DNA of 39,839 bases, from positions 1-39,839 of the forward strand of contig JBGGMJ010000127.1 of NCBI GenBank assembly GCA_041288095.1. Direction: 5' to 3'. The DNA comes from Myxococcota bacterium. Its GTDB lineage: Bacteria > Myxococcota > XYA12-FULL-58-9 > JALHOP01. Position numbers and translations under genes: made by a program. Of the stretch, positions 1,306 to 39,444 are shown piece after piece. The notes beneath the pieces were generated by a model that saw only the letters and a list, made by a program, of their open reading frames with translations, searched no databases and was not told where the DNA came from. Numbering within the stretch: position 1 is the stretch's first letter; every line of letters starts with the position of its first letter.

Positions 1306-1339
1306 CGCGGCTCGGTTGAAATTGCTAAAGAGCCGCGCC

Positions 1340-2308: not shown

Positions 2309-2313
2309 CCCGG

Positions 2314-4414: not shown

Positions 4415-4492
4415 ACAGGCATCGTGGCTTCGAGCCCACACGCTGACCCACCGGCATGTCGTGGTGTCATGATTTTTTGGGCTTTTTCGGCA

Positions 4493-4508
4493 TGGCACGG
4501 ATGCTGCT
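4493..4508 (+). promoter_or_regulatory. Putative sigma54 (-24/-12) promoter
   Basis: TGGCACGGATGCTGCT with exact GG-N10-GC spacing, preceded by T-tracts, just upstream of the DUF1592 gene. Confidence 0.6.
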
Positions 4509-4519
4509 CGCGTGCACCG

Positions 4520-6187: not shown

Positions 6188-7644
6188 GCCCGAGGCCAAT
6201 GACACGTCGTGCGTTTTTGCGGACGGCAGGTGCGCTGACCGTGGCGTTGCCGGCGCTCGAGCTGACGCACGGGAAGGCCTGGGCGCAGGCGCCGGAGAAC
6301 ATCGCCAAGCGCTACGTGGGCTTCTTTTCGCACGGCGGCTACACCACGTCGCGGGGCGTCGATGGCCGCTTGCAATCGATTGGCTCGTTTTTCGGCCACG
6401 ATCTGTGGCGTCCGCCATACGAGACAGAGACCCTGACGACGCTGGGCGAGGAGATGCTGCCGCTCGAAGGCGCGGCGGACAAGCTCCTGATCCTGCGCGG
6501 CATGGTGAATCGCGCGGGGATCGAGCAAGGCGAATACGGCGGCGGGCACGGTTTCGCCAACGTCACCGCGCTCACCTCGAACAATGTCTCGGTGCTCACG
6601 CGTTCGAACGGCGAGACCTATCAGACCGCCGAGGGGCCTTCGATCGATCAGGTGATCTCGGATCGCTTGATGCAACGCACACCGACACCGTTCGCGCGCA
6701 TCGACCTCGCCGTCGACGGTCACAACTACGGCACACCTTTCTTCAGCGCCGCCCGCCAGCCCATCGAAGGGGAAGGGAACGTCCGCACCGCCTTCGATTC
6801 GCTGTTCACCGGCGTCTCGCCCGAGGAACCGTCGCCCGAGATGGAACGCTTGCGCCTGCGCAAGAAGAGCGTCCTCGACGGGGTGCTCGACGGCTTTGCC
6901 ACCTTCAAGCGCAACTTGAGCGTCGCCGACACCCGCCGCGTCGATGCGCACTTCGAGTTCATTCGCGCGCTCGAGCGCCGCATCAACGGGCTCGGACAAG
7001 TCGCCGAATGCACGGTACCGACGCGTAGCGATCCGCGCCCCGCGGAGTTCACGGGGCCGATCATGATCGATCTCATCGTGCACGCGTTCCGCTGCGGCCT
7101 CTCGAACGTCGCGACTTTCAATCTGGCGGACATCACCACGCCGTGGACCACGGCGCCCCTCTCCGACCGCGGCATGGTCGGCTACGACATCGGCCACTCG
7201 CTGCACCACTTCCTGCGCGACCTCGCGCCCGGCGGCGCCAACGACAACGACCGCGACCGCGCCGACTGGCGCACCGAGATGGTCGCGAACCGCCGCTGGC
7301 GCCTCGGCCTCTTCCGCCGCTTGATGGACGGCCTCGCCGAAAGTGGCGACGGGGCCGCCGGCTCGATGCTCGACACCAGCATCATCTACCTCACCAGCGA
7401 GTTCAGCCGCGGTGAGCAGCACACCTGCAACGAGCCGCCGGTGCTCATCGCTGGTGGCGGCGGCGGCACCATCCGCACCGGACGGCAGATCAACTACAAC
7501 GCCGCGGGCGCGGGCACGGGGCCGATGGAGACCGACGCCTCCCTGCACAACCTCTACACGACGTTCCTGCAGGCGTTCGGGGAGACCGACGAGCACTTCG
7601 GCAACGACGATGCTTGGCGCCGGGGGCCGCTCGATTTGACGTAG
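6184..7644 (+). CDS. DUF1552-family Tat-exported protein
   Basis: Twin-arginine signal TRRAFLR, GPSIDQVI, RKKSVLD, SMLDTSIIYLTSEF, PVLIAGGGGG. ATGA overlap with the upstream gene, the usual partner arrangement. Confidence 0.85.
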   Translation: MSPRPMTRRAFLRTAGALTVALPALELTHGKAWAQAPENIAKRYVGFFSHGGYTTSRGVDGRLQSIGSFFGHDLWRPPYETETLTTLGEEMLPLEGAADKLLILRGMVNRAGIEQGEYGGGHGFANVTALTSNNVSVLTRSNGETYQTAEGPSIDQVISDRLMQRTPTPFARIDLAVDGHNYGTPFFSAARQPIEGEGNVRTAFDSLFTGVSPEEPSPEMERLRLRKKSVLDGVLDGFATFKRNLSVADTRRVDAHFEFIRALERRINGLGQVAECTVPTRSDPRPAEFTGPIMIDLIVHAFRCGLSNVATFNLADITTPWTTAPLSDRGMVGYDIGHSLHHFLRDLAPGGANDNDRDRADWRTEMVANRRWRLGLFRRLMDGLAESGDGAAGSMLDTSIIYLTSEFSRGEQHTCNEPPVLIAGGGGGTIRTGRQINYNAAGAGTGPMETDASLHNLYTTFLQAFGETDEHFGNDDAWRRGPLDLT

Positions 7645-12800: not shown

Positions 12801-14309
12801 ATGCGAAATCACCACGTCCGCGTTTACCCGTCGAAAGAGCACCTCCCGAAGGAAAAGCAGCTGGCTTGGGCCATGGCCGAGGTCGCCACCGACCCGGTCG
12901 CAATCGACCCCGCGACCAGCGAGATGATCGTCAACCGCGTCATTGACAACGCCTCGGTGGCCATCGCCGCAGCCAACCGCACCCCGGTCGCCAACGCCCG
13001 CTCGCAAGCCCTGACCCACCCGACGCCCGACGGCGCCACCCTTTTCGGTCTGCCGGAGGGCGTCCGTGTCTCGCCGGAATGGGCGGCCTGGGCGAACGGC
13101 ACCGCGGTGCGCGAGCTCGACTTTCACGACACCTTCCTCGCCGCGGACTACTCGCACCCCGGCGATAACCTGCCGCCGATCCTCGCGGTGGCGCAGCGCC
13201 TCGGCAAGAGCGGCGCGGACGTGATCCGAGGGGCCGCCACCGCCTACGAGCTGCACGTGAACCTGGTCAAGGCGATCTGCCTGCACAAGCACAAGATCGA
13301 TCACATCGCGCACCTCGCGCCGTCCGCCGCGGCGGGCATCGGCACGATGCTGAACCTGTCGACGGACGTCATCTACCAGGCCATCCAGCAAGCCGTGCAC
13401 GTCTCGTTTTCGACGCGCCAGTCGCGCAAGGGCGAGATCTCCTCGTGGAAGGCGCACGCGCCGTCGTGGGCCGGCAAGATCGCCATCGAAGCGGTCGACC
13501 GTGCCATGCGAGGCGAGAAGTCGCCGTCGCCGATCTACGAGGGTGAAGACAGCGTCATCGCCTGGATGCTCGACGGGCCGAAGGCGGAATACAACGTGCC
13601 GCTCCCCGAGAAGGGCGAGGCCAAGCGCGCCATCCTCGACACGTACACCAAGGAGCACAGCGCCGAGTATCAAGCGCAGGCGCTCATCGACCTCGCCTTC
13701 CGCCTCGGTGAGAAGGTCGGCGACGGCTCGAAAGTGAAGAGCATCGTGCTCCACACCTCGCATCACACGCACTACGTCATCGGCACCGGTGCCAACGATC
13801 CGCAGAAGATGGACCCCAAGGCGTCGCGCGAGACCCTCGATCACAGCATCATGTACATCTTCGCGGTCGCCCTGCAGGACCGCAGCTGGCACCACGTCAA
13901 GTCGTACGATCCCGCGCGCGCGCAGCGACCGGACACCGTCGCCTTGTGGCACAAGGTCTCGACCGTCGAGGACGCCGAGTGGACGCGCCGCTACCACGCG
14001 ACCGATCCCAAGGAGAAGGCCTTCGGCGCCAAGGTGGTGGTGACCATGAACGATGGGGCAACGATCACGGACGAGCTCGCTCTCGCGAACGCGAACCCCG
14101 CGGGCGCCAAGCCCTTCAAGCGTCCGGACTACATTCGCAAGTTCGAGACCCTGACCGAGGGCGTGCTGGACAACGCCGAGATCAAGCGCGTCATCGAGCT
14201 GACCCAGCGCCTGCCGCAGCTCGCGGCGGCCGACCTGTCGCGGCTTCACCCGGTGCTGCCGGCCGGCAAGCTCACCCACGCGACCCGCGACACCCGAGGC
14301 ATCTTCTGA
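12801..14309 (+). CDS. prpD: 2-methylcitrate dehydratase (MmgE/PrpD family)
   Basis: [50 protein letters not shown]. Confidence 0.92.
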
Positions 14310-15208
14310 TGTTGTTCGCGAGCGCTGATCCGAAAGCCAAGCGCGCAGCCTTCCGTGCGAAGCTGCGCGCCCCGGGACTCCTGCGATTCCCGGGCGCCTT
14401 CTCGCCGCTGGTCGCCATGATGATCGAGCGGCTGGGGTTCGAAGGCGTCTACATCAGCGGAGCGGTGCTCTCGAACGACCTGGGCTATCCTGACGTCGGC
14501 TTGACGACGTTGAGCGAAGTGGCGCAGCGCGGCCGCGTGATCGCACGCGTCACCGACTTGCCCGCGATCATCGACATGGACACCGGCTTCGGTGAACCGC
14601 TCAACGCCGCCCGCACCGTGCAAGAGCTCGAGGAGATGGGCATCGCCGGCGCGCATCTCGAGGACCAGGTGAATCCGAAGCGCTGCGGCCACCTCGAGGG
14701 CAAGGGCCTCGTCGAAACCGACGCCATGGTGAAAAAGATCGTCGCGGCGTCGAAAGCGAAGCGGGATGCGAACTTCCTCCTCATCGCCCGCACCGACGCT
14801 CGCGCGAGCGAGGGTCTCGACAAGGCCATCGAGCGCGCCAAGGCGTACGTCGACGCCGGCGCCGAGATGATCTTCCCCGAGGCGATGCAAGACGAGAAAG
14901 AGTTCGCGGCGATGCGCAAGGCGGTGAGCGTGCCGCTCCTCGCCAACATGACGGAGTTCGGAAAGTCGAAGCTGCTCGACGCAAAGCAGCTGACCGAGCT
15001 CGGCTACAACGTGGTCATTTATCCGGTGACCACGCTGCGCCTCGCCATGAAAGCGGTCGAAGACGGCCTCAAACAAATCGCCGCCGACGGCACGCAGGAA
15101 GCTCTTCTATCGCGGATGCAGCACCGCAAGGAGCTGTATGATCTGATTCGCTACGACGATTACACGACGTTCGATTCACAGGTCGCGGGCTTTCGCGCCA
15201 AAGAGTGA
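14309..15208 (+). CDS. prpB: 2-methylisocitrate lyase
   Basis: DMDTGFGEP, HLEDQVNPKRCGHL, ARTDA, LANMTEFGKS. TGATG overlap with prpD. Confidence 0.93.
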   Translation: MLFASADPKAKRAAFRAKLRAPGLLRFPGAFSPLVAMMIERLGFEGVYISGAVLSNDLGYPDVGLTTLSEVAQRGRVIARVTDLPAIIDMDTGFGEPLNAARTVQELEEMGIAGAHLEDQVNPKRCGHLEGKGLVETDAMVKKIVAASKAKRDANFLLIARTDARASEGLDKAIERAKAYVDAGAEMIFPEAMQDEKEFAAMRKAVSVPLLANMTEFGKSKLLDAKQLTELGYNVVIYPVTTLRLAMKAVEDGLKQIAADGTQEALLSRMQHRKELYDLIRYDDYTTFDSQVAGFRAKE

Positions 15209-15225
15209 GCGTGCTACGACGCGCC

Positions 15226-18066
15226 ATGCGTTTTGCGTGGCCGTTGGCTTCCCTCGTCCTCCTGATTTCCTGCTCGAAGTCGTCGAAAGCGCCGGTCGCG
15301 GATGAAGGCGCCCCCGTGGAAGCGCGCGCTCCCGACGCTGTCGCCAGCGACGACGTCCCCCGCCTCACGCTCGCCAAGTACGAGGTCGTCCCGCAAGACC
15401 GCGGCACGGAGAAGGTACTCGTCAACGCCGTGCTTCGCGATGCCGACGCTGTTTACATCCGTGGCCGGACCAACGACGCGTTCGAAGCCGGCCATGTCCG
15501 CTTCAACGTCCTCGGCGACGTGTACGGGCTGGTGAATACGGGCGACTCGGCGCCCGACAACTTCTACGCGCGCTTCCCAGGTAAGAACGTGCCTCAGGAA
15601 TTCGACGTTGCGTGGGAAGCCGTGCAGAGCGAGGGCGTCATCAGCGCCAAAGGCGTCCTGCACGTCCTCGTGCCGAAAACCGCGAAGAGCGTGAAGGCGG
15701 TGCGCGAGGAGTTCTTCGCGGGGCTGGCGCGCTGGTTCCAGAGCGCGGCGTACACCGTCTCCGGCGCGGACTCATTCTACACCTTTGCATCGGAACGGGC
15801 GCGCTTGACGAGCCGTCCCGCCGCGCGCCGCAACGACGTCTTTACCAACGACATCGACGACGCCATGGCGTTCTACACGGGCGCCGCCTCGCTGCGTGAC
15901 GCGATGCAGACTCAACGCGCGCTGCGCATCCGCCGGACCGGTAAGCGCACCGTGCCCATCGCGCAAGTCGAGGCGCTCGCCCTGCCCGCTCATCCCTGGG
16001 CTCGCCTCTCACAGGAGCTCGGCGCGAAAGCGAGCTTCGAGCCACTCGCCGCCGCGGTGCCCGCCGGGATGCTCTACATGCACGCAAGTAGCGCCAAGGC
16101 GCTGCACGCCACGGTCGATACGCTCACCGACCGCTTACTCGGTGTCGTGCAGGCCAGCGGCATCGACAGCGGCGGCGGCGACATCGTCAAGCGTTATGCG
16201 GATCAACTCGGCCTCGAGAGCTCACCGGCGATGAGCGTGCTCGCCGACACGGCCATCGACGGCATCGCCATCGCGTCGAGCGACCCGTTCTTCCGCGAAG
16301 GGACCGACGTCACGGTCGCGTTCCACGTCACCAACGCGGCTCTCTTGAAGACCGGGCTCGCGAAGAAGCTCGAGGACCTCAAGGCGCGCTTCACCACCAG
16401 CAGCTCGTCCTACAAGCTCGGCGCGCACGAAGTCGGCATGACCGCTTCGGCGGATGGAGCGGTGAATCGTCATCAACTCGATCTCGGCGACGTGATCCTC
16501 GTATCGAACAGTCGGGCCGCCCTCGAACGCTTCGTCGCCGTTCGCGATAGTGGAGCACCATCGATCGCCGCCGGCGGCGACTTCGCGTACATGCGCTCGC
16601 TCTATCCCTACGACCGCGCCGGCGAAGATGCCTTTGCCTTCATCGGCGACGCCTTCGTCGCGCACGTCACCAGTCCCGCGTTCAAGATCGCGTCGGCGCG
16701 TCGCGTCCAGGCGGCAGCCGACGTGCGGGCGGTGAGCTACGCGGCGCTGCTCTACGCCTGGCTCGAAGGCCACGCGCCCACTTCGGTGGATCAGCTCGTC
16801 AACAGCAAGCTCCTCGACAAGAACGAGCTCGTGCATGAAGGCGGCGAGCGCATCACCTTCGATCCGGCCACCGGCGCGCGCTCCCCATCCACGACAGGGT
16901 TCATGAAGCCCATCATCGAGACCGCGATCGACAAGGTGACGGCCGAGGAGCGCGACGCCTACGCCACCTTCCGCGGCGAATACGAGATGGTGTGGAGCAA
17001 GTACATCGACCCCGCGGCGCTTCGCGTCTCCTCGCGCGGCAAGGCGTTGACGCTCGACGTGCGCATGCTGCCGATCACCAACCGTGGCGACTATTCGGAT
17101 ATGGAGTCGCTCGCGGGGCCGGCACGCATCGCCGCGCCCGCCGTCCGCGACGGATTTTCGTGGGCCAGCGCCGTCGGTCCGGAAGCATCATTGCGGCGCG
17201 AGCTCGAAGGCACCGGCCGCAGCTTCATGGGCAACGATTTCTCGCTCGGCTGGCTCGGCACCTGGGTGACCGCGGGAGCGATGGACCGGGCCGGCCTCTA
17301 CGATCTGGTGGTCGCGAGCGGCAGCCTCGGCGAAGTAGAAAAGAAGGAGGACGACGAGCAGGTAGGCTTCGTACCTCCGGTATGGCGGACAGCGTTGCAA
17401 CGGGCCCCCCTGTACGTGGGCGCCGAGGTGAGAAACCCGGTGGCGCTGGCGGCCCTGCTCACCGGCGCGCGCCGCATGGTCGAGCAAGCGGCACCCGGCC
17501 TCGTCGAGTGGACGACCGAGGAGCCCATCGACGGCCAACCGGTGTCGGTGATCCGCGAAGGCGGTACGACGCCGGCCGATCAGCGCATCGCCATTCGCTA
17601 CGCCACGGCGCACGGCGCTTTCATGGCCAGCCTTTCGCGAGACGCCTTGGTCGCCCAGCTCGCGGCGCTCAAGGAAGGACGCGGCCCGAAAGCCGCGGCG
17701 AGCGAAACCAAACCCGTACCGAGCACCAAGGGCCTCGACGCCAGCACTCAGTCGGCGTTCGACTACGCTCCCGCAAGCGGCAAGTGGCTCACCAAGATCG
17801 TCGCCGGCCTCATCGAGCGTGCTCACACGGTCGCGCAACAGCGCGACGAGCTCGCGGACCGCGCCGTCGCGCCGTACGTGCGCAAAAACCCCGATGCCAA
17901 CGAGCGCGCCCGTATCACGGCCGCGTTGCTCGGCCACTCGACGGGCCGTGCGGACGTCTCGGCGACCGCGAGCGTCGCGCGCTTGCGGCAAATCGGCGCG
18001 CGCCTGTCAGTGGAAGGCGCCGGTGATCATCGCGGGCTGCACGCGGCGGTGACCTTCGGCGAATAG
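15226..18066 (+). CDS. Large hypothetical lipoprotein (about 946 aa)
   Basis: Long ORF with host-like codon usage; lipobox LLISC after a hydrophobic signal; no catalytic motif recognised. Alternative GTG start at 15205 overlaps the prpB stop. Confidence 0.8.
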   Translation: MRFAWPLASLVLLISCSKSSKAPVADEGAPVEARAPDAVASDDVPRLTLAKYEVVPQDRGTEKVLVNAVLRDADAVYIRGRTNDAFEAGHVRFNVLGDVYGLVNTGDSAPDNFYARFPGKNVPQEFDVAWEAVQSEGVISAKGVLHVLVPKTAKSVKAVREEFFAGLARWFQSAAYTVSGADSFYTFASERARLTSRPAARRNDVFTNDIDDAMAFYTGAASLRDAMQTQRALRIRRTGKRTVPIAQVEALALPAHPWARLSQELGAKASFEPLAAAVPAGMLYMHASSAKALHATVDTLTDRLLGVVQASGIDSGGGDIVKRYADQLGLESSPAMSVLADTAIDGIAIASSDPFFREGTDVTVAFHVTNAALLKTGLAKKLEDLKARFTTSSSSYKLGAHEVGMTASADGAVNRHQLDLGDVILVSNSRAALERFVAVRDSGAPSIAAGGDFAYMRSLYPYDRAGEDAFAFIGDAFVAHVTSPAFKIASARRVQAAADVRAVSYAALLYAWLEGHAPTSVDQLVNSKLLDKNELVHEGGERITFDPATGARSPSTTGFMKPIIETAIDKVTAEERDAYATFRGEYEMVWSKYIDPAALRVSSRGKALTLDVRMLPITNRGDYSDMESLAGPARIAAPAVRDGFSWASAVGPEASLRRELEGTGRSFMGNDFSLGWLGTWVTAGAMDRAGLYDLVVASGSLGEVEKKEDDEQVGFVPPVWRTALQRAPLYVGAEVRNPVALAALLTGARRMVEQAAPGLVEWTTEEPIDGQPVSVIREGGTTPADQRIAIRYATAHGAFMASLSRDALVAQLAALKEGRGPKAAASETKPVPSTKGLDASTQSAFDYAPASGKWLTKIVAGLIERAHTVAQQRDELADRAVAPYVRKNPDANERARITAALLGHSTGRADVSATASVARLRQIGARLSVEGAGDHRGLHAAVTFGE

Positions 18067-27347: not shown

Positions 27348-28169
27348 TCAGGCGCCTATCTGCTGCAGCAGGGCCTGCAGCTGGCCGAAGCCGCGGAGGC
27401 GAAAACCATAGCGTGGATCTTCCGGCCAGGCACCGGCTCCACCGAGCAGCAAGGTCACGCCGTGCTCTTGGCATGCGGGCGCCAGTCGTTCGACCTGGCG
27501 AGCGAGCAGCGAGAGGTCGGTGGAAGTCGCCGACGCCGAGAGCGCCACCATGCGAACACCGCCGGCGCGGACGAAACGCGTGAGCTCCTCGGTAGGCGTG
27601 TTGCGGCCGGCCCAGCGCGGCAGCCAGCCGGCCTCGCGCAGGCAAAGCTCGAGCAACGACAAGCCGAGCGTGTGATCTTCGTTCTCGGCGGTGGCGAGCA
27701 AGCACCGTGGTGCGTCATCGCGGATGGGCAAGGACTCGACCAGCATGGTGAGCCCGCGCTGCAGGACCTCGCTTGCCAGATGCTCCTCCACGACCGTCAA
27801 GCGGCCCTCCGACCACCTTCGGCCCGCGGCCTCGAGCACTTGGCCTATCGCCTCGGCGACGCGCCACCAGCAGCCACGAGCCGCGCGCTCGGTGAGCAAG
27901 GCCGCTTGCACTTCGTAGGCGCCGACATCGTTGGTGAGCAGCGTGAGCCAGCGGTCGATGTGCTCCGGCTGCGCGACGCCGCCCTTCTCTAGTCCGTTAC
28001 GGCGGGCAAACGCCAGGACTGTCGCGCGCGCGAAACGCCGGTGGCCGCCCAGCGTCTTCACACATTCGAGCTCGCCGCTCTGGGTCCAACGTTTGACCGT
28101 CGATGGGCCGACCCCCAAGGTGAGCGCGACCTCGCCGCTGGTCAAAAGCTCCAGGGAATCCTCGCCCAT
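27348..28169 (-). CDS. MerR/excisionase-type HTH + cobalamin-binding regulator (CarH/LitR-like)
   Basis: HTH LTSGEVALTLGVGPSTVKRW..KTLGGHRRF; W-x9-EH (WSEGRLTVVEEH); ExHxxG (EDHTLG); C-terminal LLGG. Confidence 0.85.
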   Translation of the reverse strand: MGEDSLELLTSGEVALTLGVGPSTVKRWTQSGELECVKTLGGHRRFARATVLAFARRNGLEKGGVAQPEHIDRWLTLLTNDVGAYEVQAALLTERAARGCWWRVAEAIGQVLEAAGRRWSEGRLTVVEEHLASEVLQRGLTMLVESLPIRDDAPRCLLATAENEDHTLGLSLLELCLREAGWLPRWAGRNTPTEELTRFVRAGGVRMVALSASATSTDLSLLARQVERLAPACQEHGVTLLLGGAGAWPEDPRYGFRLRGFGQLQALLQQIGA

Positions 28170-30984: not shown

Positions 30985-31770
30985 ATGGGATTTCTGGAAG
31001 ATACGATTCTCGAGCCGAGCCGCAAGCGTCCTGTCCTCGTCGACTTTTGGGCGCCTTGGTGCGGCCCGTGCCGAACGCTGGGTCCGGTCCTCGACCGGGT
31101 CGCGGCGAAGAACCCGACGCGCTTCACCCTCGTGAAAGTCGACACCGATCAGCACCAGGACATCGCGGCGCGCTTCCGCGTCCAGAGCATCCCCGCGGTG
31201 AAGCTGTTCGATCAAGCGAAGGTCATCGCCGAGTTCGTTGGCGCGCTGCCGGAGCGCGAAGTCCTTGCGTGGCTCGACCGCGTGTTGCCAACCGACGAAG
31301 GTCGCGCGCTCGCCGCGGCGAAGGAGGCCATGCACAAGGGAGACCGGGCCGCCGCCCTCGCGGCACTGCACGGGCGCATCCACGAGGATACGAAGTCCTC
31401 GGAGGCACGCGCCTTGTACGCGGTCCTCGCCTACTTCGAGCACCGCGAGCACGCGCTGGCGCTGGCGGCCACCGTCCGCGAAGGCGACGTCGGCTTCGAT
31501 CTGGCGAGCGCCGTGACCGAGCTGGATGGGTTGGATGACAAGGTGGAGGGAAAGCCCGAAGCGGTTGCGAGCTACCAGCGCGGGATCGCGAGCTTCAAGG
31601 CCGCGAACTTCGGCGAGGCAGCCGCCGCCTGGATCGAGTCCATGAAGCTCTCGCGGCAGGTGGCGCAAGACGGCGCCAAGCGCGCGCTCATCGCCCTGTT
31701 CAAGCTCCTCGGCGAACAAGACCCCGTCACCCTCGAGTACCGCCGCGCCTTCGCGTCCGCGCTCTACTGA
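30985..31770 (+). CDS. Thioredoxin-TPR chaperedoxin (YbbN/CnoX-like)
   Basis: VDFWAPWCGPC, VQSIPAV, helical C-terminus ending YRRAFASALY. Confidence 0.88.
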   Translation: MGFLEDTILEPSRKRPVLVDFWAPWCGPCRTLGPVLDRVAAKNPTRFTLVKVDTDQHQDIAARFRVQSIPAVKLFDQAKVIAEFVGALPEREVLAWLDRVLPTDEGRALAAAKEAMHKGDRAAALAALHGRIHEDTKSSEARALYAVLAYFEHREHALALAATVREGDVGFDLASAVTELDGLDDKVEGKPEAVASYQRGIASFKAANFGEAAAAWIESMKLSRQVAQDGAKRALIALFKLLGEQDPVTLEYRRAFASALY

Positions 31771-32393
31771 GCAGGGAGAAGCGCGGCGCGCACCGGCGAG
31801 GCGTCGCCCTCGGCGAGCCGAAGTGGCAAGGCGATCAGCGTGTACGCCCCCGCTGCCACATGGGCGAGGACGATGGCTTCGAGCACCGCCATGTCGTGGA
31901 ACTGCACGGCGTTGTGCGCCAGCAGCTCGCGGTCGGCGAAGGGGTCGACCGAGGGAGTGTCGATGCCGATGAGGCGGACGCCTCGCGCCGCGAGGTAATC
32001 GACGAGCTCCGGCGACAAGCTCGCGAAGTCGGTGTTGAAGACGTTCGGGTCGGGGAAGGTACCGGTCTTGAGCAAGACGCGGGGCGAAGTGATGCGAGCG
32101 CCCGCGAGATGGCTCGACGAGATGCGCTCACCCCGAGCAACGTTCACGTGCACGACGTCGCACGCACCGTAGTAGAGCTCGAGGTCCCGCTCGCCGATCG
32201 CCGCGCCGTGGCGACCATAATGGCTCGGCGCATCGGCATGAGCGCCGATGTGCAGCGTCGTGGTGATGGCCGACAAGGTGAGGTTGTCGCCCTTCTTCAT
32301 GTCGAGCGCCACCGCCCGCGAAAACGGCACATCGCCGGGCCAGACCGCCGTAGCGGACGAGAGCACCGGCGAGATGTCGATGAGCTTCGTCAC
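31764..32393 (-). CDS. kynB: Cyclase family protein, kynurenine formamidase-like
   Basis: IDISP..AVWPGD, HIGAHADAPSH, GIDTPSVDP, DASPVRA. GTG 32393 overlaps the upstream stop (GTGA). Confidence 0.8.
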   Translation of the reverse strand: MTKLIDISPVLSSATAVWPGDVPFSRAVALDMKKGDNLTLSAITTTLHIGAHADAPSHYGRHGAAIGERDLELYYGACDVVHVNVARGERISSSHLAGARITSPRVLLKTGTFPDPNVFNTDFASLSPELVDYLAARGVRLIGIDTPSVDPFADRELLAHNAVQFHDMAVLEAIVLAHVAAGAYTLIALPLRLAEGDASPVRAALLPAQ

Positions 32394-33289
32394 CGGTCGA
32401 GAACGTTGCGGTCGCCGCGGTAGACCTCGACATCGTCTTCGTCGAACTCCACGTTGGTGGCGCCCCGCTCCACCGGCTTCAACGACACCACAGCCGAGCC
32501 GGTACCCCAGATGGGCTCGTACGCCAGCACACGACCCTCGTAATCGTTGTTCTGACCCATGAGGGCCGCGAGCCACCAGACCGCCTTGAACCTCTGGTCG
32601 GCGTTCGCCTCGCGGAAGAACTGGCGCGCCAGCTGTGACACGTCTTCGAGACGTCCGTTCCCCAGGAACTCGAGGATCTTCCGGTTCCACTCGTCGTCTT
32701 TCAGCGACGAGATGCGGTCGCTCTTCGGCTCGATGAACTCGGTGACCATGCGGTTCGAGAGCTGCGTGACCGCGATAGCGACCACCTTCTTACCGAGTTG
32801 CATGGCGGCATCGCGCGCCGCCTTGCCGAGGACGATGGTTTCGGCGCGGTCCGCGTACATGTTGCACGAGACCACGCACGCGGGGATGCGGTTCTCCGGA
32901 TTGAGCAGCTTCAAGGCCGTGATGGTGCCCGTGTCGATTGGAAAGCCTTTGTACGCCACGGTCCGCGCCGTCAGGCCGCGCTTCTTGGCCGCGGCTTCGT
33001 ATGCCGCGGCGTACTCGGCATCGATGGAGAAGCTGTACGGGATCTCGCCCAAGTCATGCCATTCGTGATCGACGTGCACCCAGGTTGGCGAAGGGTCCGC
33101 CTGGATCTGGTGGCCGATCACCGACAGCCACTTGGTGCTGTAGATCATGATGAGATCGGCATCCGACGCGGCGATCTCCTCGCGCACCGTGCCGAACGCA
33201 TCGGCGAGCTTGCGATAGCCCGGCGCCGCATCGGGTGTGAGCAACGGCTGCGGCTTTCCCGGAACGATGTAACCACGCACGACGCTCAT
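32390..33289 (-). CDS. amnA: 2-aminophenol 1,6-dioxygenase alpha subunit-like (LigB fold, non-catalytic)
   Basis: YSTKWLSVIGH, HVDHEWHDLG, GFPIDTGT, YEPIWGTGSAVV. ATG 33289 overlaps the beta-subunit stop. Confidence 0.8.
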   Translation of the reverse strand: MSVVRGYIVPGKPQPLLTPDAAPGYRKLADAFGTVREEIAASDADLIMIYSTKWLSVIGHQIQADPSPTWVHVDHEWHDLGEIPYSFSIDAEYAAAYEAAAKKRGLTARTVAYKGFPIDTGTITALKLLNPENRIPACVVSCNMYADRAETIVLGKAARDAAMQLGKKVVAIAVTQLSNRMVTEFIEPKSDRISSLKDDEWNRKILEFLGNGRLEDVSQLARQFFREANADQRFKAVWWLAALMGQNNDYEGRVLAYEPIWGTGSAVVSLKPVERGATNVEFDEDDVEVYRGDRNVLDR

Positions 33290-34170
33290 GCGGCCTCCAT
33301 GTCCCAGCTGACGACAGCGTTGCCGGTACCGATGACCGTGCCGTAGGCGTGCACCTCGGCCGGATGCGTGGGGAAGCCCATCGCCGACAACAAGAACGTG
33401 AGCGATCCCGCCCGCGCCTCGCTCACCGACTGGTCGATGAAGTCGGGCATCTCGTCGAGGAGCTCGCGCGCCTTCCCGGCCTTGAGCAGCTTCACCACGT
33501 GCATGTCCCAGAGGTACTGGTTGTGGTTGTAGATGCGCTCGTACGACATGTCCTCGGGGACACCGGGCTCGGTCGTGAAGTGGCGGTGCGACAGCGAGCA
33601 CGAGGAGATGACGAGCGCCCTGCGCCCGAGCTTCTCGACGGCGCGCCGCGCGGCCTGCCCCAAGGCGATCATCTGGCGGTCGCCGACGTCGTTGCCGAAG
33701 TAGTCATAAGCCGCGTTAGCGGACACGCCGACGATGGGCTTGTCCCAGTCGGGGTTCACCATGTGGCAGGCGGTCACGGTGCCGTAGTCGATGCGGAACT
33801 TGGGGTTGCGCATCATCTTGGTGACCAGGCCCTGCGAGGCCGCTTCAGCGCACATGGCCTCGGCGAGCGGGACGTCGACCTTCAGGTCGTAGTGGAAGCG
33901 AAAGAGGTTGGGAAAGATCGGATCGACCGACAAGCTCTTGAAGTGCGGCACACCCAGGAAATGGTGGCCAACCACGGTCCGCCAGTGGGGCGAGTGGACG
34001 ATGATGACGTCGTAATCTTTCTTCTTCAGCTTGGCGCGAAGCGCGTCATAGCCCCAGCGCAGGACTTCCCAGCCGCCCTCGGCGCGCGGCTCGTTCTGCT
34101 TGGGGTTGTCGGCGTACACCAGGTGCGGCGGGTGCGGGGCGAGAGCCCCCATGACGATGCGTCCACTCAT
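33286..34170 (-). CDS. amnB: 2-aminophenol 1,6-dioxygenase beta (catalytic) subunit
   Basis: LAPHPPHLVY..NEPRAEGGWEVLRW, HSPHW, SVDPIFPN, MMRNPKFRIDYGT, LSHRHF, YGTVIGTGNAV closely follow AmnB/CnbCb. Fe-ligand His/His/Glu and catalytic Tyr/His positions appear present. Confidence 0.88.
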   Translation of the reverse strand: MSGRIVMGALAPHPPHLVYADNPKQNEPRAEGGWEVLRWGYDALRAKLKKKDYDVIIVHSPHWRTVVGHHFLGVPHFKSLSVDPIFPNLFRFHYDLKVDVPLAEAMCAEAASQGLVTKMMRNPKFRIDYGTVTACHMVNPDWDKPIVGVSANAAYDYFGNDVGDRQMIALGQAARRAVEKLGRRALVISSCSLSHRHFTTEPGVPEDMSYERIYNHNQYLWDMHVVKLLKAGKARELLDEMPDFIDQSVSEARAGSLTFLLSAMGFPTHPAEVHAYGTVIGTGNAVVSWDMEAA

Positions 34171-35603
34171 AAGGCCACACAAACGTTACGGGCCTCGCTG
34201 AAGGTCTCGAGCGAATACACTCCGCCTTCGCGGCCGAGGCCACTGTCTTTCATTCCACCGAAGGGTACGCGCAGATCGCGCATCATCCAGGTGTTCACCC
34301 AGACCATGCCGCTGTCGATGGCGGCGGCGACCCGATGCGCGCGTGACAGGTCGCGGGTCCATACCGACGCGGCAAGCCCGTAGCGCACTTCGTTGGCCAT
34401 GCTGATGGCGCGAGCGTCGTCGTCGAATGGATGCACGGTGACGACCGGCCCGAAGATCTCCTCGGTCGCCGCGCGCGCCTTCGACGACAGGCCGGTGACG
34501 ATGGTCGGCTCTAGGAAGAAGCCGTTGGCGAGCGCCCCCGCGAGCTTTGGTCTGCCACCGCCATGAACGATCTTACCGCCCTCTTCCTGCGCCAGCTTGA
34601 TGTAGCCTTCGACCTTCTCGCGGTGCGCGGCGGACACCAGAGCACCGAGCTGCGTCGACGGGTCTTTGGGATCACCGACGCGCATCTTGGCGAGACGGTC
34701 GACCATGCCCTGCACGACCTCGTCGTGAATCGACTGCTCGACCAACACGCGTGAGCCGCACAGGCAGATCTGTCCCTGATTGGTGAACCCCGAGCGCACC
34801 GCGCCTTCGATGGCTTTTGCTCGGTCGGCGTCGGCGAAGATGAGCGTCGGGTTCTTACCGCCGAGCTCGAGCGACGTCTTGCGGAAGGAAGCAGCGGTGG
34901 CCTCGGCGACCTTGGCGCCGGTCGACGTCCCGCCGGTGAACGAGACGAGCTTCACATCGCGATGGCGGACCAGCGCGTCGCCAGCTTCCGCGCCGTAACC
35001 GTGCACGACGTTGAACACGCCCGGGGGCAAGCCGACATCACGCACGATGTCCGCTAACGCGTGCGCGGTCAGCGGCGTGAGCTCGCTCGGCTTGCAGACG
35101 ACGGTGTTGCCCATCGCCAATGCGGGCGCGGCCTTCCACGACAGCAGGTACAACGGCAGGTTCCACGGCGTGATCAGCGCGCAGACCCCGACCGGCTTGC
35201 GCAACGTGTAGTTGATGGCGGACTGGTCGACGGGGTGAAAACCCGGATTGTCGTGCAACACCGCGTTGGCGAAGAAGCGAAAGTTCGCGATGGCACGCGG
35301 GATGTCCATGCTGGCCGCCAGCGCGACCGGCTTCCCCGTGTCGAGCGACTCGAGGTTCGTGAGCTCCTCGGCGCGGGCTTCGAGCTTCTCGGCGATGCGC
35401 AGCAGATACCGCGAGCGCTCCTGCGTCGAAAGGCGCGCCCAACCTGGCTGGGCCTCGCGCGCCGCGGCCACGGCGGCGTCCACTTCGGCTTGGCCGGAGC
35501 GCGGTACCCAAGCGATCACCTCACCCGTCGCGGGCGAGACGTTGTCGATGCTCGCGGCGGTGCTCTTCCACTCGCCACCGATGAAGTTTCGAATCTCACG
35601 CAT
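34167..35603 (-). CDS. 2-aminomuconate/2-hydroxymuconate semialdehyde dehydrogenase (AmnC/ALDH8-like)
   Basis: DIPRAIANFRFFA, PWNLPLYLLSWK, LELGGKNP, NQGQICLCGSR, EEIFGPV, WMMRDLRVPFGG. Confidence 0.88.
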   Translation of the reverse strand: MREIRNFIGGEWKSTAASIDNVSPATGEVIAWVPRSGQAEVDAAVAAAREAQPGWARLSTQERSRYLLRIAEKLEARAEELTNLESLDTGKPVALAASMDIPRAIANFRFFANAVLHDNPGFHPVDQSAINYTLRKPVGVCALITPWNLPLYLLSWKAAPALAMGNTVVCKPSELTPLTAHALADIVRDVGLPPGVFNVVHGYGAEAGDALVRHRDVKLVSFTGGTSTGAKVAEATAASFRKTSLELGGKNPTLIFADADRAKAIEGAVRSGFTNQGQICLCGSRVLVEQSIHDEVVQGMVDRLAKMRVGDPKDPSTQLGALVSAAHREKVEGYIKLAQEEGGKIVHGGGRPKLAGALANGFFLEPTIVTGLSSKARAATEEIFGPVVTVHPFDDDARAISMANEVRYGLAASVWTRDLSRAHRVAAAIDSGMVWVNTWMMRDLRVPFGGMKDSGLGREGGVYSLETFSEARNVCVAL

Positions 35604-35612
35604 AGAACGACC

Positions 35613-36788
35613 TCACAGCGCGTTACCGCCGCCCTTCATCGAGTCCCAAGACGACGAACCAAAGCCTTCACCCGGCCCGCTGATGCCGAACTGCTCCGAC
35701 TGCGCTTGCCAGTCGTAGTACCAACGGTCGCGATCCGGATCCCACTCGTCCCAGGTCGGAATCCTCTCGAGCGCCGAGAGCCGGTCCTTGGGGACGACGC
35801 CGGGCACGATGAACGCCTTCTGCTTGTAGAGCGGATACGGATTGCGCAGCTCGAAGCCGAGCACACCCAGCACGGCGCGCGCGATGTACCAGGTCGCCTG
35901 CGGGTTCCACCCATGAGCGATCTTGATCATGACGCCGAGACCATCCGGGTAGTCGGGATGAATGATGCTCAAGGCGAGCAAACCGTCGGCGCCTTCCTTG
36001 GCGATGACCTTGCCGCCGCACGCCTTCATGACCGTGCTGTCCAGGCGGTTGAAGCCGCCGACGAGATCCGGATGCTCGATCATCGAGGCCCAGATCCAAT
36101 CTTCGTCACGCGTCGCCGCGAGTCCGGCGAAGACCTTGGCGAGCTCGCCGACGGTCATCGACACGGTGGGAAAGCCGTCACCATCGCGCGCGACCCGCAG
36201 CGGCTGCCAGTCGGTCCCGAGAAAGCGGCGGACCTGCTGCATGTACGCCTGGAAGAAGGGATGGCGCGGCAGCGTGTAACCGACGCGGCTCCAGTTCTTC
36301 AAACGGCAGCCCCTCAAGATGGCGGCGTGCTGCCCCGAGCTGTTGTTGTACCAGCGGCGCGGCCGGCGGACCTGCCGCCCGAACTGCACCAGCGGCACAT
36401 CGAGCGGTGTCTGCATGAGACCCCACTCGGACGGGTCGAGCAACGACTGCGCGGCGGCGACATGCTCGGCGGTGCCGTTGTGCGAGGCGACCGCGATAGC
36501 ACGCTGCTGTGAATTGGTGATCGGCTCGAGATCCTTCGCGAAGACCTTGAGCATCACCGGCTTCATGCAGCTGCGGCCGTAGCAGAGGACGTTGCCGCCG
36601 AAGGAATGGATGATCTCGTTGCCCGATGCCCAGGCGACCGCGCCGTGGATGGTGGTCTCGGAGACACCGTTACGCCGATAGTCGACCAACGGCTGCCATT
36701 CGACGTCACGCCCAGTGGGGATGCGCGCGTCGGAATCACCGAGTGGTGAGGTCGGGTAAACGTCTCGGCCGACGGTAGGCATGGTCAT
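35613..36788 (-). CDS. Class 3 (Rhizobium-type, asparaginase II) asparaginase-like hydrolase with altered metal site
   Basis: RSCMKP, ASHNGTAEH, NNSSGQHA, RDGDG, AKEGADG. ATG 36788 overlaps the upstream stop. Confidence 0.78.
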   Translation of the reverse strand: MTMPTVGRDVYPTSPLGDSDARIPTGRDVEWQPLVDYRRNGVSETTIHGAVAWASGNEIIHSFGGNVLCYGRSCMKPVMLKVFAKDLEPITNSQQRAIAVASHNGTAEHVAAAQSLLDPSEWGLMQTPLDVPLVQFGRQVRRPRRWYNNSSGQHAAILRGCRLKNWSRVGYTLPRHPFFQAYMQQVRRFLGTDWQPLRVARDGDGFPTVSMTVGELAKVFAGLAATRDEDWIWASMIEHPDLVGGFNRLDSTVMKACGGKVIAKEGADGLLALSIIHPDYPDGLGVMIKIAHGWNPQATWYIARAVLGVLGFELRNPYPLYKQKAFIVPGVVPKDRLSALERIPTWDEWDPDRDRWYYDWQAQSEQFGISGPGEGFGSSSWDSMKGGGNAL

Positions 36789-37993
36789 TTGCGTTCGACC
36801 TTCGGGATGACGGCCTCGACGAAGTGCTTCATGTTGTCGATGACGCGCGCGTTGTCGTGGTTGAAGAAGTCGAACCAAAGCATCAAGCGGTCGTCGGGGT
36901 GAAAGCGCGTCTTCATCTGCTCGGCGATGGTGTCGGGATCCCCGATCAAGGCGTTGTCGGCCGCGTTGTCGACCTTCTTGGGATCCAGCGTGCCTTCCAG
37001 AGCGGTCCAATAGGCACCGAGCGCGTGCTTGGCGGCCTCCTGCGCCTTCGCTTTGTCCTTGTCGATGAACACGAAGGTGGTGCGCGGCATGTACCAGCGC
37101 TTCCATTCGCCGCCATTCGGATGAAACGCTTGCTTCAAACGTACGTGCGTTTGCTCGATCACTTCCGGCGCGGTGATCGAGAGGTTGAAGACGTGCGCGG
37201 GCATGAACTTGTTGGCGAGCTCTTGCGACGCGGCGTCGTGGCTGCCGACGACTAGCTGCAACAGCCTCCGGTCGAAGTGCTGCGGGATGATCTTCAGCTG
37301 CTCGAAGGTCCAGCGGCGCGGCAGCACGAACGCGTCGCCCTGCTCCTCGAAGTTATCGGCGCGCGCCGCGGTGACCACCCTCTGCCAGTCCTCGTCCTTG
37401 CGGAAGAGCGAGCGCGTCAGGAGCGGCTGCGTGACCTCGTCGCTCGACAGGACGTCACCGCGCAGCAAGCGGCAGAAGACCTCGACCGCTTCGGCGAACA
37501 CGAGGCCCTTGACCACCGGCCACGCCGCCTTCTCGGTGGCGTTGCGCGGCATGATGCCATAGGCGCGGTTCATGAAGTCGAAGCGTCCGGCCGAAAAGCC
37601 GACGTTGAGCTTGCGCTTCTCGCCGGCGCGCAGCCCGTGCAGCGCCGTGAAGTAAGCGATACGCTCGGCCGCCGCGACGGGTCCGCCATTGCAGACGATG
37701 TTCATGACGGCGCTGCCGACCTCGATCGTCTTGGTGCGCGCGAACACTTGATGCGCGAGCTGCGTGATGTCGCAGTTCAAACCGACCTCACCGCGCCAGT
37801 GAGGAATGACGGGCTCGCGGTTCTTCTTTTGTACCTCGCTCGAGAGATGCGACTCGGCGACCCACGCGGTGCCGAAGCCCAAGGCGTCCGCCGCCTCGAC
37901 CTGCGCGAAGAAGCTCTTGAACATCTCGGCTTCGCTGGGCGCCTCGCCATCGACGGGGGTCTGACTGATCGAGAAGAAGACGTCGTAGCGCAT
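36785..37993 (-). CDS. Luciferase-like (LLM class) flavin-dependent monooxygenase
   Basis: ADALGFGTAWVAESH, RTKTIEVGSAV, AERIA, LIGDPDTIAEQM, NMKHFVEAVIP. Confidence 0.85.
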   Translation of the reverse strand: MRYDVFFSISQTPVDGEAPSEAEMFKSFFAQVEAADALGFGTAWVAESHLSSEVQKKNREPVIPHWRGEVGLNCDITQLAHQVFARTKTIEVGSAVMNIVCNGGPVAAAERIAYFTALHGLRAGEKRKLNVGFSAGRFDFMNRAYGIMPRNATEKAAWPVVKGLVFAEAVEVFCRLLRGDVLSSDEVTQPLLTRSLFRKDEDWQRVVTAARADNFEEQGDAFVLPRRWTFEQLKIIPQHFDRRLLQLVVGSHDAASQELANKFMPAHVFNLSITAPEVIEQTHVRLKQAFHPNGGEWKRWYMPRTTFVFIDKDKAKAQEAAKHALGAYWTALEGTLDPKKVDNAADNALIGDPDTIAEQMKTRFHPDDRLMLWFDFFNHDNARVIDNMKHFVEAVIPKVERK

Positions 37994-38004: not shown

Positions 38005-38787
38005 CTAGATGCTCTGGAGACGGCCGCCGTCGGCCGCGAGACTGACACCACGGATGAAGGAAGCGAGCGGTGAGCCCAAGAAGACGATGGCGGCGGCGAT
38101 CTCGTCCGGCGTGCCCAGCCGCTTTTCGGGGACGGAGGCGAGCCACTCGCCCAGCACCTGCTCACCCGAGATACCCCGGCGCTTGCCGGCACCCTCGCGG
38201 AGCTCGAGCATGCGCTCGGTGTCGGTGTAGCCCGGCAACACGTTGTTGACGGTGATGCCCGGCGGCAGCTCGCGCGACAGGGTCTTCGCCCAGCCGGCGA
38301 CGGCCGCGCGACAGATGTTGGAGACCCCGAGCCCGGCGATGGGCTCCTTCACCGAGGTGGAGACGACGTTGATGATGCGCCCGTAGCCGGCGCTGACCAT
38401 GCCGGGGACGACGACCTTGGTGATGGCGTGCGGCGTGAGCACGAGGCGGCCCATGGCCTTCATGATGGCGGCCTCGTCGGCTTCGATGAGCGGCCCCCCA
38501 GGCGGACCGCCGGTGTTGTTGACCAAGACGTGCACGACCCCGCGCGCAACGACGCTCTTCACCTTCTCGATGGTCGGTTCGCGCTCGTCGAGGTCGGCAA
38601 CCAAGGTGTCGACGCCGGCCGCGCCCGCGGCGGTGAGCTCCTTGGCGAGCTCGTCGAGCGCCTCTTTACGGCGGGCGACGATGGTGAGCGTCGCCTTGCC
38701 GGCGGCAAAGCCAAAGGCAGCGGCGCGACCGATGCCGCGGCTCGCGCCGAAGAGCAACACGTGCTTCCCGCCGAAGTCCATCTGCAT
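38005..38787 (-). CDS. Short-chain dehydrogenase/reductase
   Basis: GASRGIG, VLVNNTGGPPGG, GRIINVVS, ITVNNVLPG, ADGG; the catalytic YxxxK is replaced by SNICR. Confidence 0.88.
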   Translation of the reverse strand: MQMDFGGKHVLLFGASRGIGRAAAFGFAAGKATLTIVARRKEALDELAKELTAAGAAGVDTLVADLDEREPTIEKVKSVVARGVVHVLVNNTGGPPGGPLIEADEAAIMKAMGRLVLTPHAITKVVVPGMVSAGYGRIINVVSTSVKEPIAGLGVSNICRAAVAGWAKTLSRELPPGITVNNVLPGYTDTERMLELREGAGKRRGISGEQVLGEWLASVPEKRLGTPDEIAAAIVFLGSPLASFIRGVSLAADGGRLQSI

Positions 38788-38799
38788 GCCGCCCGCGGT

Positions 38800-39435
38800 C
38801 TATCCCGTCAGGATGGTCTCGGCAATCTCTCGCGGGTGGCCAACCAGGTGGTCGGCCCCCGCCTGCTCGAGCTCGTCCCGGCCACGGATCCCATAGGTGC
38901 AGCCGATGGTCCGGGCCCCGTAGGCCTTGCCGGTCATGACGTCGACGGCGCTGTCGCCGACCATCCACACCTTGCCGAAGGAGCGTCCCCCGACCAGGTG
39001 GGCGATGACGTCCGGCGACGGCTTCTTGAAGGCGAAGGTGTCGCCACCAATGGCCACCTCGAAACGCGCGAGCATGCCGAAGTGCTCGAGCATCTGGGTC
39101 ACGAAGCGCTCCGACTTGTTGCTGGCGACGGCGAGCGGCCGCGGGCCCAGGGCGTCGAGCATGGCCCCGACGCCTTCGTAAGGCTTCGAGGTGTCGAACA
39201 TCATCGTCGCGTAACGCTCCCGGTAGCGGCGCTTGAGGTCGGCGTGCTGCGCGCCCTTGGGCAGCGCCTCCTGGATGAGGTGGTCGAGCCCCTCGCCAAT
39301 CCAGCCGCGCACCGTCCCGGCGTCGACCGGGTTGCCGCCCAGGTCCACCCGCGCCGCCGACAACGCCGCGGCGATATCGCCCAGGGTATCCACGAGCGTC
39401 CCGTCAAAATCGAAAATCACCAGCTCGTTCGCCAT
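38800..39435 (-). CDS. HAD-superfamily phosphatase (phosphoglycolate phosphatase-like)
   Basis: FDFDGTLVD, VASNK, KKPSP, MVGDSAVD. Confidence 0.88.
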   Translation of the reverse strand: MANELVIFDFDGTLVDTLGDIAAALSAARVDLGGNPVDAGTVRGWIGEGLDHLIQEALPKGAQHADLKRRYRERYATMMFDTSKPYEGVGAMLDALGPRPLAVASNKSERFVTQMLEHFGMLARFEVAIGGDTFAFKKPSPDVIAHLVGGRSFGKVWMVGDSAVDVMTGKAYGARTIGCTYGIRGRDELEQAGADHLVGHPREIAETILTG

Positions 39436-39444
39436 CACGTCCCC

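Follow-up and report, generated by a model that had tools for sequence, protein, structure and literature searches.

Class 3 asparaginases and pathways through 2-aminophenol

The closest described relatives of the enzyme considered here are the class 3 asparaginases ReAV and ReAIV of Rhizobium etli (PDB 7os3, 9g66, 8cly and 8ori), in which zinc is held by Cys135, Lys138 and Cys189. According to the accessible part of PMC11024299, Cys135 and Cys189 are conserved in 99%, and Lys138 in 97%, of ReAV orthologues, and activity on L-asparagine (L-Asn) was lost in nearly every one of seven zinc-sphere muteins of ReAV. The metal is described as non-catalytic, anchoring L-Asn via its α-amino and α-carboxy groups (available text of PMC12951835); Arg47 helps to place the substrate and Ser48 is the nucleophile (available text of PMC12292245). 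Since the zinc of ReAV only anchors and Arg47 positions L-Asn, the scaffold would be suited to β-aspartyl substrates. Here we analyse a contig of 39,839 nucleotides from a Myxococcota bacterium (assembly GCA_041288095.1, contig JBGGMJ010000127.1), which in its whole length is referred to as the window and belongs to a 5.85-Mb genome that is 90% complete. On its minus strand, at positions 35613..36788, lies a gene for an asparaginase-like hydrolase (PF06089, class-3-type; AsnII below). All three zinc ligands are replaced in its product, the gene belongs to an operon with 2-aminophenol dioxygenase genes, and we tentatively propose that the enzyme completes a bypass of kynureninase.

Two further described systems bear on this operon. 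The 2-aminophenol meta-cleavage clusters (amn of Pseudomonas sp. AP-3, cnb of Comamonas, nbz of P. pseudoalcaligenes and the ARO microcompartment loci of Actinobacteria) share with it the two dioxygenase subunits AmnB and AmnA and an AmnC-type dehydrogenase, and their AmnD-type Rid deaminase is also present in most of the loci related to ours. They lack genes for tryptophan 2,3-dioxygenase (TDO), KynB, a luciferase-like monooxygenase (LLM) and PF06089 proteins, whereas the window operon lacks decarboxylase, hydratase and aldolase genes. In its available text, PMC10470539 states that the natural 2-aminophenol precursor for the actinobacterial ARO pathway is unknown, and the steps after 2-aminomuconate are, by the accessible part of a recent preprint, still being discovered (bioRxiv 10.64898/2026.06.05.730449). 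The second system is the canonical bacterial kynurenine pathway, with which our locus and its relatives share TDO, KynB, an aldehyde dehydrogenase (ALDH), a Rid protein, a short-chain dehydrogenase/reductase (SDR) and the operon scaffold, but in which kynureninase, 3-hydroxyanthranilate dioxygenase (3-HAO) and aminocarboxymuconate semialdehyde decarboxylase (ACMSD) stand where LLM and AmnBA stand here. A full-text literature search, with subscription journals outside its coverage, found no paper linking kynurenine to 2-aminophenol via an LLM or a PF06089 enzyme.

A class 3-type hydrolase with an altered zinc site

The hydrolase gene encodes 391 amino acids without internal stops, and its ATG shares bases with the stop codon of the gene upstream (ATGA). 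PF06089 (Asparaginase_II) is the sole Pfam profile matched by the protein (P0001), over residues 35-313 (E 3.1e-45, 155 bits, cut-off 25). A phmmer search of the PDB returned ReAIV (8cly, 6.9e-15) and ReAV (7os3, 3.9e-12). From both of these the window protein differs considerably, with only 20-25% identity, with terminal extensions that include the motif WDEWDPD, and with its setting in a tryptophan/aminophenol operon.

The phmmer alignment pairs NNCSGKH of ReAIV with NNSSGQH of the window protein, and TDGCSIPT with RDGDGFPT. The first of these motifs, NSSGQH for the family's NCSGKH, is encoded at 36327..36344 (minus strand, residues 149-154); Cys135 has become Ser and Lys138 Gln, and His139 is kept. 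The second, DGD for DGC, is encoded at 36177..36185 (minus strand, residues 202-204), with Asp187 and Gly188 kept and Cys189 changed to Asp. The zinc site of class 3 enzymes is thus occupied by Ser150, Gln153 and Asp204. An initial annotation of the window, made from the letters alone, had reported that all three ligands are replaced, which both the PDB alignment and a 98-member family alignment bear out, and its coordinates for the two motifs proved exact on recalculation. It had also stated that the Ser/Lys motifs are kept, and all of them were found in the translation and in the alignment: RSCMKP carries the equivalents of Arg47, the nucleophile Ser48 and Lys51 (RSCMK at 36561..36575, minus strand, residues 72-76), ASH (in ASHNG) that of Ser80, and AKEGADG that of Lys263. 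The residues retained, in ReAV numbering, are Arg47, Ser48, Lys51, Ser80, Asn134, His139, Asp187, Gly188 and Lys263, so that the Ser48-Lys51 and Ser80-Lys263 pairs are both shared with ReAV and ReAIV; the equivalents of the catalytic set in the window protein are R72, S73, K76, S102, K264, H154 and D202. Since ReAV orthologues conserve the ligands at 99/97/99%, the replacement of all three sets the protein genuinely apart from its family and is no chance drift.

The AlphaFold (AF2) model of the hydrolase, built on a 98-row alignment, is confident (mean predicted local distance difference test, pLDDT, 90.8) and shows the two-domain fold of ReAV. In Foldseek, the matches at E <=1e-16 are all ReAIV or ReAV chains, with template modelling (TM) scores of 0.62-0.73, and glutaminases come next, far lower. 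The predicted fold differs from that of kynureninase, a class V aminotransferase dependent on pyridoxal phosphate (TIGR01814), and it is not the Rid/YjgF (PF01042) fold expected of a 2-aminomuconate deaminase of the AmnD/NbaF type. By these comparisons the hydrolase is a novel member of a described enzyme family, and its exact reaction is left at the level of a proposal.

The operon and its conservation

The hydrolase sits in a tightly coupled row of genes, all on the minus strand. Directly upstream, at 36785..37993, is the gene of a divergent luciferase-like flavin mononucleotide monooxygenase, the LLM (PF00296, 402 aa, ATG at 37993), whose stop overlaps the hydrolase start. The AF2 model of this LLM (pLDDT 89.1) finds bacterial luciferases and other LLMs in Foldseek, with the type II Baeyer–Villiger enzyme 3,6-diketocamphane monooxygenase (4uwm) at rank 40. 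Downstream of the hydrolase are an aldehyde dehydrogenase of the 2-hydroxy/2-aminomuconic semialdehyde dehydrogenase type (AmnC-like; 34167..35603; TIGR03216, 610 bits against a cut-off of 693); AmnB, the catalytic β subunit of 2-aminophenol 1,6-dioxygenase (33286..34182; 3vsg_B 6e-109, 8ihg_A 2.9e-107); AmnA, its α subunit (32390..33289; 7txy_A 6.6e-55), whose ATG at 33289 overlaps the AmnB stop; and KynB, a kynurenine (aryl)formamidase of the cyclase family (31764..32393; PF04199; TIGR03035, 215 bits against a cut-off of 223), whose GTG at 32393 overlaps the AmnA stop. Upstream of the LLM come an SDR oxidoreductase (38005..38787) and, at the head of the row, a gene for a phosphatase-like protein of the haloacid dehalogenase type (38800..39438) that is common only to the three closest relatives. 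Homologues of the SDR, at 34-36% identity, end four of the five canonical kynureninase operons that were fetched (L152-L154 and L156; for example, L153 16943-17671), and its place is probably in the lower pathway, past 2-aminomuconate, and not at the LLM step.

A word-index search yielded 1574 proteins at E <=1e-3 among 8000 candidates, and the best 120 of these 1574 are all 72-97% identical to the window hydrolase. A genome scan confirmed 326 stretches, of which 80 loci were kept; all counts out of 80 refer to these, and many of their contigs are cut short. The loci come from Myxococcota, Bdellovibrionota, Holophagae and other Acidobacteriota, Planctomycetota, Krumholzibacteriota and Marine Group II/III archaea, and include one cultured organism whose genome is complete, Sulfidibacter corallicola (L023). 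By tblastn, the neighbours are LigB2/AmnA in 73 loci, LigB1/AmnB in 69, ALDH in 62, LLM in 57, SDR in 56 and the cyclase in 19; a TDO gene is present in 17. The composite operon reads (TDO)-SDR-LLM-AsnII-ALDH-AmnB-AmnA-(Rid)-KynB. Since two gene orders recur, SDR-LLM-AsnII-ALDH-AmnBA and SDR-LLM-ALDH-AmnBA-AsnII, the linkage outlasts rearrangement.

The hydrolase is the most conserved protein of the row, with a median identity of 73% across loci against 46-63% for its operon partners, and with 70-97% across bacteria and archaea. It has N- and C-terminal extensions in which the WDEWDPD motif is conserved, and 73 positions, of which many are aromatic, are invariant and specific to its clade. We define the conserved TDO-LLM-AsnII-AmnBA tryptophan operon by an orthologue at >=60% identity, with the WDEWDPD C-terminal extension, encoded beside LLM and/or AmnBA in a kynureninase-less genome, and the window locus belongs to it. 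The operon is apparently undescribed, and widespread.

Variation at the zinc site

In the 98-member family alignment, the three ligand replacements always travel together as Ser/x/Asp. Among the 80 loci, the site reads Ser/Gln/Asp (S/Q/D) in 16, Ser/His/Asp (S/H/D) in 44 and Cys/Glu/Cys (C/E/C) in 20. Amn genes adjoin the hydrolase gene at 15/16 S/Q/D, 43/44 S/H/D and 15/20 C/E/C loci, so that the variant of the window does co-occur with amnBA in other genomes. Orthologues from the same operon, at 60-63% identity, have C/E/C (L097-L101) or the canonical Cys/Lys/Cys (C/K/C; L086 and L102), and over the whole range of operon orthologues, from 60 to 97% identity, S/Q/D, S/H/D, C/E/C and C/K/C all occur. 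A metagenome scan for distant S/H/D relatives gave two loci only, one of which (L086) is the C/K/C member of the main clade just mentioned.

On a FastTree phylogeny of 95 family members (local supports, midpoint root), the Ser/x/Asp state requires two origins: one (13 rows) is nested, with a support of 95, among the C/E/C proteins of the operon, and three shorter proteins that form a distant group (support 98) account for the other. Because C/E/C and C/K/C orthologues occupy the same operon, the loss of the zinc ligands marks neither the operon nor a function, and here we depart from the initial annotation, which had read it as pointing to a new substrate. On the sequences, Ser/x/Asp looks like another way of building the anchoring site that has arisen more than once, and not like the origin of a new role. 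It is plausible that the window hydrolase is metal-free or re-liganded. The zinc anchor of ReAV would then be replaced by direct contacts, in which Asp204 could bind the ammonium group of the substrate, and Ser150, Gln153 and the retained Arg72 its carboxylate. A possible reason for the loss of the anchor is that 2-aminophenol chelates metals and that its quinone-imine attacks thiols.

The distant Ser/x/Asp group is represented in one genome (G537) by a short S/H/D PF06089 gene that directly follows an LLM gene, together with a gene for a Vut_1-type transporter (L096 6364-9433). This LLM is 47% identical to that of the window. TDO is present in the genome, and no LigB-family gene and no kynureninase were found in it, its completeness not being established. 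Such a stand-alone LLM-AsnII pair favours a step before ring cleavage for the two proteins, and 2-aminophenol and aspartate may be end products in this organism.

The operon and kynureninase are found in different genomes

In the genome of the window, TDO lies on another contig. No kynureninase (TIGR01814) was found over the cut-off in this 90% complete genome, the best match scoring 25 bits against a cut-off of 246; a search for 3-HAO gave no match either, in a test whose control query also matched nowhere. Eleven genomes in a sample of 301 from the same phylum carry the hydrolase gene. The ten other than our own all have TDO (10/10) and none has kynureninase (0/10). For comparison, seven non-carriers of the same order comprise one with TDO and a true kynureninase, one, 86% complete, with TDO alone, and five lacking both. 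Kynureninase is also lacking in five carriers from other phyla (0/5).

A second sample consisted of 301 genomes from the phylum of a Bdellovibrionaceae carrier (Bdellovibrionota-type). In it, the hydrolase clade is found in 30 genomes and kynureninase in 67, with an overlap of 0, and TDO in 200, including 30/30 clade carriers and 66/67 kynureninase carriers. An empty overlap would arise by chance with a probability of 3e-4, or of 2e-6 if only TDO carriers are counted; both figures make the exclusion look stronger than it is, as the relatives are not independent. In all, kynureninase over the cut-off was found in none of the 45 other genomes that carry the hydrolase clade.

The distribution of the LLM follows the same line. 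It is present in 30/30 genomes with the hydrolase clade and in 14/14 kynureninase-less genomes with the gene fusion described below, and in 0/29 kynureninase genomes, these being nine fusion carriers and 20 further genomes. With 44 LLM genomes and 29 kynureninase genomes and no overlap, LLM and kynureninase are strictly alternative in the genomes examined.

Fusions of the AsnII and KynB domains

A PF06089 profile search of the second sample gave matches in 82 genomes and three types of protein: the hydrolase clade, a canonical type of 340 aa, and a third type in frames of 500-590 codons. Eight of the 30 clade-carrier genomes also hold a separate gene of the canonical type. In the third type, by Pfam, an N-terminal AsnII domain is fused to a C-terminal KynB (cyclase) domain. 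The AsnII domain of these fusions shares about 30% identity with the window hydrolase, and all ten catalytic and zinc residues are intact in 19/19 verified fusions (L134 6214-7815, plus strand; L133 1187-2764, minus strand; 17 more among L135-L151).

The fusions are embedded in a scaffold that reads Rid-ALDH-FAA1-FAA2-[X]-AsnII/KynB-TDO, in which X is either 3-HAO-ACMSD-kynureninase or LLM (L133-L151; compare L134 with L136, L146 and L148); in the LLM version, AmnBA is located upstream. This is a natural module swap, kynureninase/3-HAO/ACMSD in one version and LLM/AmnBA in the other. Twenty-three genomes were counted as fusion carriers, 19 of them verified and four judged by frame length or a partial match; on this count LLM is present in 0/9 kynureninase-positive and 14/14 kynureninase-negative carriers. 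In 9/11 verified loci of the LLM type, LLM adjoins the fusion.

A proposed two-enzyme bypass and its alternatives

The LLM-type operons have enzymes for the formation of kynurenine (TDO and KynB) and a 2-aminophenol dioxygenase, and no known enzyme that leads from kynurenine to 2-aminophenol; only LLM, AsnII and SDR are without an assigned step. Kynurenine can be seen as asparagine with a 2-aminophenyl group replacing the amide nitrogen. We propose, with a probability of about 0.4, that LLM oxidises kynurenine in Baeyer–Villiger fashion and that the hydrolase frees L-aspartate and 2-aminophenol from the product. In detail, TDO, encoded elsewhere in the genome, and KynB would make kynurenine; LLM would insert oxygen between the ring and the side-chain ketone (Baeyer–Villiger/Dakin-type), giving the β-(2-aminophenyl) ester of aspartate, possibly followed by its rearrangement to N4-(2-hydroxyphenyl)-asparagine; the Ser-Lys hydrolase would cleave the β-aspartyl bond, as its relatives cleave asparagine; and AmnAB and the aldehyde dehydrogenase would open and then oxidise the ring. 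The analyses show the family, the fold, the catalytic residues kept, the conservation of the operon and its exclusivity with kynureninase, whereas both reactions, the substrate and the metal-free anchoring are what we infer. The usual chemistry of LLMs runs through a nucleophilic flavin peroxide, and ring hydroxylation is not typical of them; 2-aminophenyl esters can shift to the anilide. The conversion of an aryl ketone to an aryl ester, and of this to a phenol and an acid, has a likeness in the logic of a type II Baeyer–Villiger monooxygenase such as 4uwm with an esterase, a likeness that extends to the proposed logic only. The pair of 4-hydroxyacetophenone monooxygenase and 4-hydroxyphenyl acetate esterase is another parallel, its monooxygenase being of another flavoprotein class than LLM.

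The initial annotation had suggested that the hydrolase stands in for kynureninase as an amide or C-C hydrolase. What stands of this is that the whole module replaces kynureninase in our genome and in the 45 others; a direct C-C hydrolysis of kynurenine is chemically implausible without prior oxygenation, and such a reaction by a serine hydrolase was rejected since the leaving group is not stabilised. The broader claim, that LLM and hydrolase constitute an undescribed two-step replacement of kynureninase feeding 2-aminophenol dioxygenase pathways in many uncultured bacteria and marine archaea, and so the natural source of their substrate that has long been missing, and that the zinc anchor was discarded twice independently (Cys/Cys to Ser/Asp), is put forward tentatively.

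Several observations weigh against the proposed bypass. In the second sample, 104 of the 200 TDO-positive genomes have neither the hydrolase clade nor kynureninase. The genome groups compared were partly picked by the features counted, many genomes are incomplete metagenome-assembled ones, and related genomes do not count as independent cases. The folds that the LLM resembles are compatible with Baeyer–Villiger chemistry but not discriminating, SDR has no step in the route, and in 25 S/H/D loci the AsnII gene is not adjacent to LLM. The main objection is that AsnII-KynB fusions are present in eight verified kynureninase-positive genomes without LLM, with catalytic and zinc residues intact, and that the identity of the AsnII domain, divided by that of the KynB domain, gives 0.835 in these genomes and 0.843 in the 11 that have LLM. 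Since this constraint is equal, at least the fusion subfamily must work independently of LLM.

As a separate observation, at least 14 of the 104 genomes just mentioned carry the AsnII-KynB fusion and LLM, the remainder being unexplained or incomplete genomes.

The alternative that survives best starts from these fusions. The PF06089 enzymes of tryptophan operons could share one hydrolytic job that is common to both routes, acting on an α-amino-γ-oxo acid near the TDO and KynB steps (N-formylkynurenine, kynurenine or a side product), with LLM alone delivering 2-aminophenol. In its favour are the full catalytic set that the fusions keep in both route types under equal constraint, KynB as the fusion partner, and TDO as the next gene in many loci. 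On the other hand, no such reaction can be named, the fusion subfamily is only distantly related to the window clade (about 30% identity), and that clade is found only in kynureninase-less, LLM-positive genomes. We regard this explanation as unlikely, if worth retaining.

It is improbable, to a greater degree, that LLM makes 3-hydroxykynurenine and that the hydrolase is a C-C enzyme (retro-Friedel–Crafts type) giving aspartate and 2-aminophenol via a β-aspartyl-enzyme. This scheme has the products and the pathway logic of the bypass that we propose, and its acyl part is again β-aspartyl. However, it asks an LLM to act as a ring hydroxylase, C-C cleavage is unprecedented in the class 3 asparaginase fold, and fusions in kynureninase genomes are equally hard to explain by it.

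The initial annotation had also put forward the hydrolase as the missing 2-aminomuconate deaminase of the pathway. This step follows ALDH in both route types, and a cluster-type Rid gene is absent from the window (31764-33289 region) and from its three closest relatives; the sole Rid-family gene of our genome (contig C76, 12174-12539) is only 39% identical. The amidase-type 2-aminomuconate deaminase CnbZ is a precedent. Canonical kynureninase operons without PF06089 have a 137-aa Rid-family gene (PF01042/TIGR00004) between ALDH and 3-HAO, and tblastn found homologues 47-68% identical to it in 62/80 main-clade loci, 35 of them with the Rid and AsnII genes no more than 300 nt apart, and in 9/19 verified fusion loci. 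Deamination is thus already covered in most operons, which leaves the idea weak. Moreover, G537 pairs LLM with AsnII, yet no ring-cleavage enzyme was found there, and the conversion of kynurenine to 2-aminophenol would be left without a hydrolase. Altogether, a role as deaminase seems very improbable. A displacement of Rid by AsnII in the fusion operons was considered and rejected, given the Rid homologues that tblastn found in fusion and main-clade loci.

Finally, an ordinary L-asparaginase co-transcribed by happenstance, which would account for the retention of all class 3 catalytic residues except the zinc ligands, is hardly credible in view of the loss of L-Asn activity in almost all seven ReAV zinc-sphere muteins (accessible part of PMC11024299), the operon linkage across phyla and gene orders, a 70-97% conservation that exceeds that of every operon partner, and the separate canonical-type gene in 8/30 carrier genomes. 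The locking of the gene to amnBA-type genes at nearly all S/Q/D and S/H/D loci (15/16 and 43/44) supports the expectation of the initial annotation on this point.

Other genes of the window

The remaining genes of the window are unrelated housekeeping genes. A few genes downstream of the operon, at 27348-28169 (minus strand), is a regulator of the MerR/HTH family with B12-binding domains (CarH-like light sensor type), which is common to one related locus (L004). On the plus strand, a 953-codon open frame without a Pfam match (15205-18066) comes after a PrpD-like gene (12801-14309) and a gene of the PEP-mutase/isocitrate-lyase family (13946-15208), and at 16-7644 there is a row of Planctomycete-type DUF genes (DUF1501; DUF1592/1588/1595/1585; DUF1552), among which lie a deoxyhypusine synthase-like gene and one for a DAO-family oxidase.

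Significance

If the proposal is correct, the operon would represent an unrecognised branch of a major amino-acid pathway, one that yields aspartate, not alanine, and runs via free 2-aminophenol, and two enzyme families never tied to tryptophan would take part in it. The branch would have a wide distribution, among bacteria that are predators or degrade protein and among Marine Group II/III archaea, and it would account for the common occurrence in nature of 2-aminophenol dioxygenases, which are known chiefly from degraders of nitroaromatics. Sulfidibacter corallicola, as a cultured carrier, makes the proposed route testable. For the enzyme family, one scaffold with four versions of the anchoring site (Cys/Lys/Cys, Cys/Glu/Cys, Ser/His/Asp and Ser/Gln/Asp) offers a natural series for the role of zinc in class 3 asparaginases.

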